In this document: positions 59,727-64,000 of the stretch, piece by piece | How positions within the stretch are numbered: position 1 is the stretch's first letter | Layout of the letters: every line of letters begins with the position of its first letter | Virus record (IMG/VR): IMGVR_UViG_3300027917_000024 | Location: 32,001-96,000 of that record | Length of the DNA stretch: 64,000 nucleotides | Direction: 5' to 3' (one strand) | Origin: a virus | Notes under the pieces: generated by a model | Databases searched by the model: none | The model's input: the letters and a program-made list of their open reading frames with translations, nothing else | Told to the model about the DNA's origin: nothing | Program-made: the position numbers and the translations under genes

Positions 59727-60422
<696 letters not shown>

Positions 60423-61542: not shown

Positions 61543-62415
61543 TTATTTCCTATGTATAAGATCTACAGCCTTTTTCACATCTGTAAAAACGTCTTCATCT
61601 GTCGTTTCGATGTACCAATCTGTGTTCCTTGTTGGATCAATGGTTTTTCCCTTCAAGAAGTGCATATCAAACGGATAAATAATAAAAGCAGGAACGTGGG
61701 CTGTATATGCTAAAAATCCCAATCCGTATGGTCCAGAGAGTAAAAGATCTGAGTTTAGAAGTACCGCCATCTGTTCGGTCAGTGTCTTACCGGCATAGTT
61801 ATGTAATGTGAAGTTGAATGGTTCCAATGCCTCAGTTATGGATCTTTCTATCATTCCTGCTTTTGTCGAATGTACTACTGCTACCATATAAATATGAATT
61901 GGTTTGTTTACCTGTGCTTCTATTTTATCCAGGCAGTAAATCAGATCATATTGCAAGGAAAATTCTGCATCATAATTCGTATCAAAAGCGTTAATGGCAA
62001 TATTGATGGCATTTTTATCAATGAGTTTCTGTACGTCCTCAAACATTTCCTTGTTCACATTGATTTTATGCATATAATTTGTCGGTTGCCTGGGAAAAAT
62101 CTTCTCTAAATGATGGTTCTTAAGATGCTCTATAATATCAATGTTAATAGTATTATTTACATATCGGTTCAAATCAATGTCATGTGGAAAATTAGCTACT
62201 GAGACGTATTCCTCATAAATAGGAGTAGGACCCAGATAAGCAATTCCATTGAATGAACTTATAATATCTTGTGAAAGAACGAATTTTTTTGCTTTTTTAT
62301 CGTAAGCTGTATTTATTCCGATCAAGTCGAAATTACTCATGACTAATTTCCGATACAGCAAAATAAAGTTAGTAAAATCATCTCGTACCAGGCAGGTAAG
62401 CAGCCTCTTTTCCAT
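61543..62415 (-). CDS. Divergent GT9-like (GT-B) protein
   Basis: NYAGKTLTEQMAVLLNSDLLLS...LA....VP matches the GT9 C-terminal pattern, but DSGxxH is replaced by PYGLGF. Confidence 0.55.
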   Translation of the reverse strand: MEKRLLTCLVRDDFTNFILLYRKLVMSNFDLIGINTAYDKKAKKFVLSQDIISSFNGIAYLGPTPIYEEYVSVANFPHDIDLNRYVNNTINIDIIEHLKNHHLEKIFPRQPTNYMHKINVNKEMFEDVQKLIDKNAINIAINAFDTNYDAEFSLQYDLIYCLDKIEAQVNKPIHIYMVAVVHSTKAGMIERSITEALEPFNFTLHNYAGKTLTEQMAVLLNSDLLLSGPYGLGFLAYTAHVPAFIIYPFDMHFLKGKTIDPTRNTDWYIETTDEDVFTDVKKAVDLIHRK

Positions 62416-62424
62416 GGTTCCTCC

Positions 62425-63795
62425 TTACTCTACAAAATATACCTTCTTGTATAGTTCTGTCATACTGTCACTCTCAATATTATAATTTTTAAGAACGAAC
62501 TTTTTTCCCTCTTCTGCATATTCTGTTACTTTATCTATATTATTTATACAGAAATCTATCGCATCCATCCAATCATCAAGTTTTCCAGCCTGTTCCGTCT
62601 GTGTAGGAACTAGCATGCACGAGTTTTCCATTTCTTTTTTGATATTTGAGTACGGGTCGATATCGGAGCAGACAGGAAAAGCTGTTGTATAAAGATATTC
62701 CAAAAGTTTGATGGGGCTTTTTGATCGATTGAAGTCACATTCCACAAGAGGAGCAAGTCCAATATGCATCTGAAAGCTACTCAAAATCTGATGGTAATAG
62801 ATGGGTTCAACAAATGGAAGGGAAATGATTCTATTAAAATAAGGAGATAGGTCCTTTGGTGGAGACTCGCCCATAAAAAGCATGCCTATATTTTCATACT
62901 TATCAAACAATTTTGGAATAAGCCCTCCAAAAACCTCTGTATCCTTCTGATGAAATGATGATCCAATCCAAGCAATAATAATATCAGAGTCGTATTGTAA
63001 TTTTTTTGGAAGATCAATATATTTATGATCAAATACACAGTTAGGGACGACCATTACATCATCATTATGCTTTCTCAACACATCAGCAAGAGGTTCGGTT
63101 GTTGTTACTGCCCTATCACATTTCTTCAATATATTTGTTGTCACTCCAGTCCTCATTGGTGTCCAAAAGGGATATGCATGGTTCCAGTCCGGTAGATTCC
63201 ATATATCATCATCAAGCTCAAACACCACTTTCTTACCACTAGCTTGTGCCTCTTCTACAACACCCTCAAGACTAGGATCTGCTGGACGTTGAATGACCAG
63301 AGTATCAGCTAGATTATATAAATGGATTCGATCTGTAGTGATGAGATGTGCGGGAATTCCCTTCCTGCATAAAGCAACACTCGGTAAAAACATTCTGTAA
63401 TAACCGCATCCCCATTTTCGATGGTACGTCTAACCGTTGGATTTCTCCGCTCTCTAGACTCTCATAGTTTCCTATGAGCTCGGACCATATCATCATCCTA
63501 AAACATATAATAGGATGTCTCGCTTTTCGAACTCACTTGAGTTCTACACTTTACGTTGGTCTCTGAACCTGCCCCATATATAATCTGTACATGAAGGGGA
63601 TTGGCTGCTGATCGTCCAATCTTTTGGTTTTTTAGCTGTCACGTTTAACATTTCTGTTTCCGTTGTAGCACCAAAAGCTCTATAGGAGTTTCCAGCAATT
63701 AACGAGATTTGCATCTAGGTATTACTACCTAGAGGGACAAATGGTTTATCCGCCGCCATAAACGATACGGTTTTTACTTCTGGTTCTTGCTGCAT
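62425..63795 (-). CDS. GT-B fold (family 4-like) glycosyltransferase split by a group I intron: exon 1 63795-63748, in-frame exon 2 63417-62425
   Basis: AGGAGAGG RBS. Joined exons read MQQEPEVKTVSFMAAD-KWGCGYYRMFLP, restoring the AD..GCG.YR motif. Also IQR, ELDD, VPN, WIGS..H..D and FN.SKS.IK.LEY. Confidence 0.85.
63418..63747 (-). ncRNA. Group I self-splicing intron (about 330 nt, IA-like, no ORF)
   Basis: P1 GGAU|AAA-CCA-UUUGUCC with U.G at the 5' splice site; P2 with GUAA loop; P=AAUUGCUGGAAA; Q=AUCAGCAG; R=UCAGAGACCA; S=GAUAUGGUCC; P3 UCUCGU/GCGAGA; P7.x hairpin 63529-63544; P8 63494-63517; P9 GAAA hairpin 63461-63478; P10 CCAUUU/AAAUGG. Confidence 0.93.
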
Positions 63796-63858
63796 ACTTC
63801 CTCTCCTTTTTCTTTTTTGTTTGTCTTTTGCTTCTTTTGGCCATCCAATTTTCTCCGA

Positions 63859-63999
63859 TTACCTCCTTTTTCGCCGCCTCGTTCTCTTCCTCCTTTTTTT
63901 AGTAGCTTTATTGGCTGGAATTGCTTGCTGGTACGTGTTGAACGGCCCTGCAATCCGTCTTCGCCTTCCAAATACAGATGGTTGGCTATAGACATAATA
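63859..63999 (-). CDS. C-terminal fragment of an Arg/Lys-rich protein (begins outside the window)
   Basis: Open frame YYVYSQPSVFGRRRRIAGPFNTYQQAIPANKATKKRRKRTRRRKRR-stop, ending before the GT RBS. Confidence 0.45.
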   Translation of the reverse strand, partial: YYVYSQPSVFGRRRRIAGPFNTYQQAIPANKATKKRRKRTRRRKRR

Positions 64000-64000
64000 G

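Follow-up and report, generated by a model that had tools for sequence, protein, structure and literature searches.

A group I intron whose terminal guanosine (omega-G) disagrees with the reading frame of its host gene raises the question of where the intron ends and whether the interrupted gene can still be expressed. Such a disagreement is found in the window analysed here, a stretch of 64,000 nucleotides corresponding to bases 32001-96000 of a 105,150-bp IMG/VR virus record, in which a group I intron on the minus strand (63747-63419) interrupts a gene predicted to encode a GT-B-like glycosyltransferase (GT). The original prediction had described a conflict at the 3' splice site, and the conflict is present: ligation after G63419 is computed to give GAU-AAAA-UGG, read as ...AADKMGMRLLQ... 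with a stop after 50 amino acids, whereas exon 2 starting at 63417 is computed to give a protein of 346 amino acids. With slightly better than even confidence, we see in this locus a real and recent insertion of one nucleotide in an A-run, with canonical splicing giving a frameshifted mRNA and the gene being off or very leaky.

The identity of the interrupted gene is suggested by its homologues. The protein had no Pfam matches at E<=0.01; PF00534, PF13692 and PF13439 are found in homologues that share 28-33% identity with it (E 1e-26 to 1e-18), and close homologues are labelled by JGI as 'glycosyltransferase involved in cell wall biosynthesis'. A search of phage GenBank records yielded nothing closely related to the locus. 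A strong ribosome binding site, AAAGGAGAGG, lies immediately 5' of ATG 63795, and the exon 1 peptide agrees with the N-terminus of the intronless homologue P0001, MEQDTGVKTVSFMAAD. Intronless homologues of the exon 2 frame are 345-353 amino acids long and up to 88% identical; P0001 is the closest of them (346 amino acids, 88% identity) and begins MEQDTGVKTVSFMAADKWGCGYYRMFLPS. The intron is inserted between Asp16 (GAU) and Lys17 (AAA), and the peptide that would span the junction, MAADKWGCGYYR, occurs in P0001. It was claimed originally that an in-frame product needs exon 2 to start at 63417, and the junction carried by the homologues bears this out. The motif D-x-x-GCG-x-YR is present in 12 of 12 full-length homologues, which means that the gene needs GAU followed by AAA UGG.

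Two neighbouring reading frames deserve description. A very basic, K/R-rich ORF of 73 amino acids (63774-63995, minus strand) overlaps the start of the GT gene by about 20 nt, and in the relative behind homologue P0037 the equivalent upstream frame continues without a stop into the GT and has been called as a single protein of 402 amino acids. Read-through from the 73-aa ORF, which is in phase with exon 2 after omega-G splicing of the four-A junction, was considered as a route to the enzyme and rejected, as the frame is closed by UAA 63776-63774 and has no later start. Elsewhere in the window (59727-60419, minus strand) an ORF of 230 amino acids has two small domains joined by a long (PE)n repeat linker.

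The intron itself is, judged from its sequence and predicted fold, an intact group I intron of subgroup-IA-like type. The Rfam model RF00028 matched 63757..63461 on the minus strand over model positions 1-253 of 253 with 101.6 bits (E 4.9e-26; the gathering score in cmscan is 50), and a search of the phage's own genome agreed with the cmscan match. The conserved catalytic core P3-P8 with R/S and P/Q elements was recovered by cmscan, and the elements P1-P9 are all represented, including P2, P3, P4-P6, P8, a P7.1/7.2-type hairpin and a P9.1 hairpin. The minimum free energy fold has a z-score of -4.8. Exon 1 terminates in GGAU, of which U63748 is the 5' splice-site U; in P1 this GGAU pairs with GUCC (63738-63735) and the U.G wobble at U63748 uses the only G in the guide. 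The bulged nucleotide of P7 is A63562, after G63563 and followed by G63561-A-C-C63558; this strand pairs with G63486-G-U-C-C63482, and the guanosine-binding pair read from the sequence, G63561-C63483, is a normal G-C. P9 is formed by CUCAUAG and CUAUGAG around a GAAA loop, and P9.1 by GUCUA...UAGAC. In J7/9, G63481-A63480 are able to pair with U63421-C63420 as P9.0, directly before G63419. Thus, the placement of omega-G at 63419 from P9.0 (GA/UC) and the normal G-C pocket, as first proposed, holds as a structural reading. The coordinates are collected in Table 1.

Table 1. Coordinates of the intron, its flanking exons and associated features (window positions unless stated otherwise).
Feature	Position	Strand	Description
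Exon 1	63748..63795	minus	16 codons, MQQEPEVKTVSFMAAD; ATG 63795 to GAU 63748
Intron, ORF-less	63419..63747	minus	329 nt if the end is omega-G 63419; tail GUACCAUCG
Internal guide sequence	63735..63744	minus	CCAUUUGUCC; P1 and P10 strands
P7 5' strand	63558..63563	minus	G-A(bulge)-GACC; sequence reading, aligns with the Rfam consensus R element
P7 3' strand and J7/9	63480..63486	minus	GGUCC 63486-63482 and GA 63481-63480; GA is the 5' half of P9.0
P9.0 3' half and omega-G	63419..63421	minus	U63421-C63420 and G63419; sequence reading, aligned to UUG of L083
A4 run	63415..63418	minus	One A above what the frame and the homologous G/AAA junction allow
Exon 2, glycosyltransferase frame	62425..63417	minus	KWGCGYYRMFLPS... 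to stop; 330 codons and stop
Out-of-frame reading after omega-G splicing	63314..63418	minus	K-M-G-M-R-L-L-Q...; ends at UAA 63316-63314
C33 tRNA-Lys(UUU) and tRNA-Phe(GAA)	G000:C1 11252-11326 and 14479-14556		Genome coordinates, outside the window

On the minus strand the intron tail ...GUACCAUCG ends at 63419 and is followed by A63418-A63417-A63416-A63415 and then U63414, with UGGGGAUGCGG... after the A's. The guide strand CCAUUU (63744-63739) pairs with AAAUGG (63417-63412) as a P10 of six base pairs that is contiguous with P1 and has a predicted energy of -5.0 kcal/mol, and if exon 2 starts at 63418 the same six pairs need an offset of one nucleotide (-4.0 kcal/mol). The register described in the original prediction is therefore correct in that P1 and P10 are contiguous only from 63417. 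As an argument for splicing after an A it fails, since any A inserted into an ancestral G/AAAUGG would give the same conflict, and P10 adds no independent support for exotic splicing. The intron tail CCAU (63424-63421) can also pair with AUGG of exon 2 (63415-63412), forming a hairpin that places the 3' splice site in the loop CGAAA and mimics or competes with P10; it has no equivalent in the homologous intron described below.

The ancestral state of the junction can be read from a related locus. A metagenome scan gave at least four close loci, with L083 (Ga0307380_10027320) as the sole intron carrier among the matches listed. Its GT is 57% identical to that of the window, and its contig starts within a homologous intron, which is inserted at the same codon boundary, ahead of the Lys in D-K-[WF]-GCGYYR. 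The two introns are identical in the J8/7-P7-J7/9 segment GAUGAUGAUAUGGUCCGA, nearly identical in P9.1, and show one compensatory pair in P9 (CUCAUAG/CUAUGAG in the window, CUUAUAG/CUAUAAG in L083), and both tails end in A-U-Y-G. They differ in that the L083 tail, GUAACACAUUG, is 2 nt longer and that the 5' half of the L083 intron lies off the contig. The main difference is at the end: the L083 intron closes as ...GACGUAACACAUUG with exon 2 starting AAAUUCGGCUGCGGG, that is, with an omega-G and three A's, followed in frame by AAA UUC GGC UGC GGG (K F G C G). Ligation after omega-G thus restores the host gene in L083 and leaves it broken in the window. The best alignment of the tails, CACAUUG/AAA against CCAUCG/AAAA, differs at the junction by one added A, and the omega-G with an in-frame AAA in L083 indicates that the state of the family is omega-G followed by three A's and that the window has one extra.

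A pattern scan with the S element found five other viral introns in unrelated genes with an identical GAUGAUGAUAUGGUCCGA, and these share the GGUCC-GA of J7/9 and tails of the ...AUUG type. Exact-pattern scans for the P9/P9.1 region of the intron in viral_contigs and genome_contigs found none, and a protein-pattern scan of genome_contigs found no relative. Three viral contigs sharing GAUGAUGAUAUGGUCCGA have two group I introns each (L162 9287-9896, L165 11648-12257 and L163 1050-2061). In L162 and L165 the two introns are separated by about 60 nt and enclose very short exons, and in L163 the distance is about 560 nt; the pairs in L162 and L165 resemble the arrangement in Twort orf142.

According to our preferred explanation, the ancestral junction would have been omega-G followed by AAA UGG, as it still is in L083, and this phage lineage would have gained the extra A in the run of A's where the first codon of exon 2 lies. 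In the second step of group I splicing, omega-G is bound in the P7 pocket and acts as leaving group while the phosphate on its 3' side is attacked by the 5' exon; if omega-G is replaced by A, the exons are not ligated unless the G-C pocket has been altered too. The ribozyme would keep G63419 as omega-G, P9.0 and the G-C pocket being unchanged. Since G63419 is framed by the pocket and P9.0 and its aligned counterpart serves as omega-G in the sister intron, the ligated mRNA is expected to carry four A's and to be out of frame. Translation of GAU-AAAA-UGG from the exon 1 start would stop after 50 residues, and the full-length enzyme of 346 residues would be absent or made only in traces by rare +1 slippage or mis-splicing. 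The downstream frame has no start backed by a ribosome binding site, and a protein from Met 63393 would lack the beta1-loop motif DxxGCGxYR. The coding sequence has 57 homopolymer runs of at least three bases, which makes an indel in this particular run unremarkable. We infer from this that splicing takes place at G63419 and that the gene is functionally off. Among the four unranked alternatives offered originally, an inactivating mutation of one nucleotide is thus the one indicated by the L083 junction, while assembly error is disfavoured by the following. The data do not favour omega-A splicing, +1 slippage or an A3/A4 on-off switch.

Whether the fourth A is real was assessed from Logan contigs instead of read pileups, and such contigs drop minority variants. 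Five public runs, none of them RNA, hold part or all of the stretch, and contigs from X1, X2, X3 and X5 were aligned to 62400-64000, of which X3 misses the junction. In X1 and X2, from the probable source sample (k-mer depth 7.4 and 5.6), there were zero differences across the site. In X5, from a different study (2025), a contig of 223 nt covers 63215-63437 with 1 mismatch and 0 gaps and so has four A's; although it extends only 19 nt beyond the A-run, a contig with three A's would have required a gap or further mismatches. The X5 and X1 copies are only about 0.2% divergent. The result named originally as a refutation, three A's in the reads and hence an assembly error, was not seen: every contig crossing the site has four, including that of the independent study. 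The record keeps unbroken ORFs of 3937, 2790 and 2585 amino acids and tightly packed genes, which suggests that indel errors are rare in the assembly. It is thus very probable that, in two samples or more, most of the phage DNA truly has four A's.

That the functional phage population nevertheless has three A's, or a mixture of three and four, with the fourth A due to error or a local majority, appears to us a small chance. It would fit the low depth (k-mer 5.6-7.4 in X1, X2 and X5) and the loss of minority variants from contigs, and homopolymers are the usual place of both indel errors and real length polymorphism. However, three contig sets agree on a gapless run of four, one of them from another study and year, no other long ORFs in the record are visibly broken, and a run of four is short for a systematic short-read error (the platform is not on record). 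It is also unlikely, though less so, that the four-A allele is the working form of the gene, either through P10-directed ligation one nucleotide past omega-G or through efficient +1 slippage on AAAA, possibly aided by a tRNA-Lys with C33. In the former case, P10 stacked on P1 would set the point of ligation, A63418 would be the last intron base, in an omega-A-like or 'omega+1' event, and the 346-aa GT would be made. Only with exon 2 from 63417 is P10 perfect and contiguous with P1, the ORF is without decay, the four A's persist across samples and nature offers a precedent in the ND5-717 intron of hexacoral mitochondria, whose last base is A and from which a ligated ND5 mRNA is obtained (PMC8146996, PMC6545197). 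It is the only natural case we found with A as the last intron base and a ligated mRNA, and serves as a model for such splicing, but it has no adjacent G at the omega position and is obligatory, ancient and probably dependent on host factors, unlike the window intron, in which a proper omega-G precedes the A and whose sister intron uses omega-G. The literature searched gave no such precedent from bacteria or phages. The P10 register is, moreover, what an A inserted into the ancestral G/AAAUGG leaves behind, and the G-binding pair is a normal G-C with a proper omega-G and its P9.0 immediately adjacent. Ligation past omega-G also goes against the chemistry of the second step, in which the nucleotide occupying the G site provides its 3'-O as leaving group, and we hold such ligation to be improbable.

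Omega-G splicing could instead be combined with +1 slippage of tRNA-Lys on A-AAA-A, which would bring enough ribosomes back into the GT frame to be useful, whether as programmed recoding or to throttle expression; this too we regard as a poor prospect. Re-pairing of tRNA-Lys on AAAA would be perfect, with UGG as the next codon, and reading in the shifted frame yields exactly ...DKWGCGYYR; the G-rich GGCGGCGG, 2 nt 5' of the Lys codon, is placed where an SD-like element might act, the phage has a tRNA-Lys(UUU) gene of its own whose product carries an unusual C33, and the ORF is intact. The likeness to prfB-type +1 frameshifting lies in the re-pairing of the P-site tRNA in the +1 frame and in the G-rich stretch a few nucleotides upstream. 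Against it, the site has no known stimulator, its 0-frame A-site codon is AUG and thus neither a stop nor an evident rare (slow) codon, and GGCGG is a poor match to the anti-SD, leaving the SD-like element weak. Transcriptional slippage would need a longer run than four A's. The shift site is not conserved, the junction of L083 being a plain run of three A's and that of the intronless homologues an ordinary in-frame AAA, so recoding is not ancestral. The nucleotide at tRNA position 33 is nearly universally U; the phage has 14 tRNA genes, and both its tRNA-Lys(UUU) (loop CCUUUAA) and its tRNA-Phe(GAA) (loop UCGAAGC) have C33. A role of the C33 tRNA-Lys(UUU) in decoding of AAAA is a lead only. 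Very improbable, finally, is the use of another canonical G, either G63412 (exon 2 starting GGAUGC...) or omega-G 63419 after an early 5' cleavage behind A63749. Both products are in frame (G63412 gives 344 amino acids without Lys-Trp, and cleavage one base early gives ...AAEKWG...; ligation after G63413 is computed to be out of frame), GGAUG of exon 2 can be read as pairing with CAUUU of the guide in a contiguous register (G.U, G.U, A-U, U-A, G-C), and group I introns are on record as using cryptic sites at both the 5' and the 3' end (PMC10136302 and its references 19-24). For G63412, however, P9.0 is impossible (UG against GA) and the pairing is weak by RNAduplex (-2.0 kcal/mol). Against early cleavage, the only U.G wobble in P1 fixes the 5' site. 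In all homologues the invariant D is separated from GCG by exactly two residues, which speaks against both sites.

The state of the gene does not sit entirely comfortably with its being off. The exon 2 ORF is intact across 330 codons with all family-invariant residues kept, and the five private substitutions of the window protein are all conservative (I>V three times, A>S and A>V). From the sequence, this lack of any sign of decay is equally compatible with a very recent frameshift and with a gene that is still expressed; an undamaged ORF would be expected of a functional gene no less than of a very recent lesion, which counts against the gene being off, as does the persistence of the allele in a sample of another study and year. 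Termination about 890 nt before the next gene could, in addition, be polar on co-oriented downstream genes. The window protein clusters at 90% with four others (P0001, P0037, P0035 and P0036; pairwise identity 86-91%). P0001 and P0037 are intronless, and P0035 and P0036 have been called as ORFs of 322 amino acids starting at the same internal Met as that of the window, so that they are probably interrupted too. With three A's, this intron sequence would keep the GT frame open back to AUG 63496, giving about 356 amino acids, and the 322-aa calls are only a hint of four A's in P0035 and P0036; if present there, the allele would make a dead gene hard to maintain. The 60-aa ORF spanning the junction (63314-63496), used as a protein query for four A's in relatives, gave no match. 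Putatively interrupted and intronless forms interleave by protein identity, with P0036 closest to P0001. This interleaving fits a mobile or optional intron and suggests recent gain or loss despite the absence of a homing endonuclease gene.

The intron is in most respects like the self-splicing subgroup IA introns known from phages (T4 td/nrdB/nrdD, SPO1, Twort orf142, Staphylococcus, Lactococcus and Vibrio ICP1), whose RF00028 core it shares over the whole model. Introns of Staphylococcus, Bacillus, Lactococcus and Vibrio phages share 73-76% identity with its conserved core segments, and the U.G at the 5' site, the G-C pocket, omega-G with P9.0 and the insertion in a conserved motif of a protein gene are common to all. 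It differs from them in that its host gene is a structural-module glycosyltransferase and not a gene of DNA metabolism, in that it has no homing endonuclease ORF and in that canonical splicing leaves the frame broken.

It seems, thus, that the likely reading of this locus is unexceptional, with a mobile group I intron residing in an accessory gene of a phage and a one-base insertion in a homopolymer breaking the frame. The case calls for caution in the annotation of introns by sequence alone, as a conflict in P10 register is the expected footprint of an indel and not a sign of unusual chemistry. The virion-module glycosyltransferase joins the phage genes that host group I introns, and the presence of the intron appears to be polymorphic among relatives of 86-91% identity. 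If the four-A allele is productive, it would provide a natural test of the strictness of omega-G outside organelles or a case of recoding that depends on the splice junction; P10-directed ligation, if true, would make this the first phage or bacterial group I intron with a last base other than G. In case the allele is working, splicing and decoding would jointly set the level of the enzyme.
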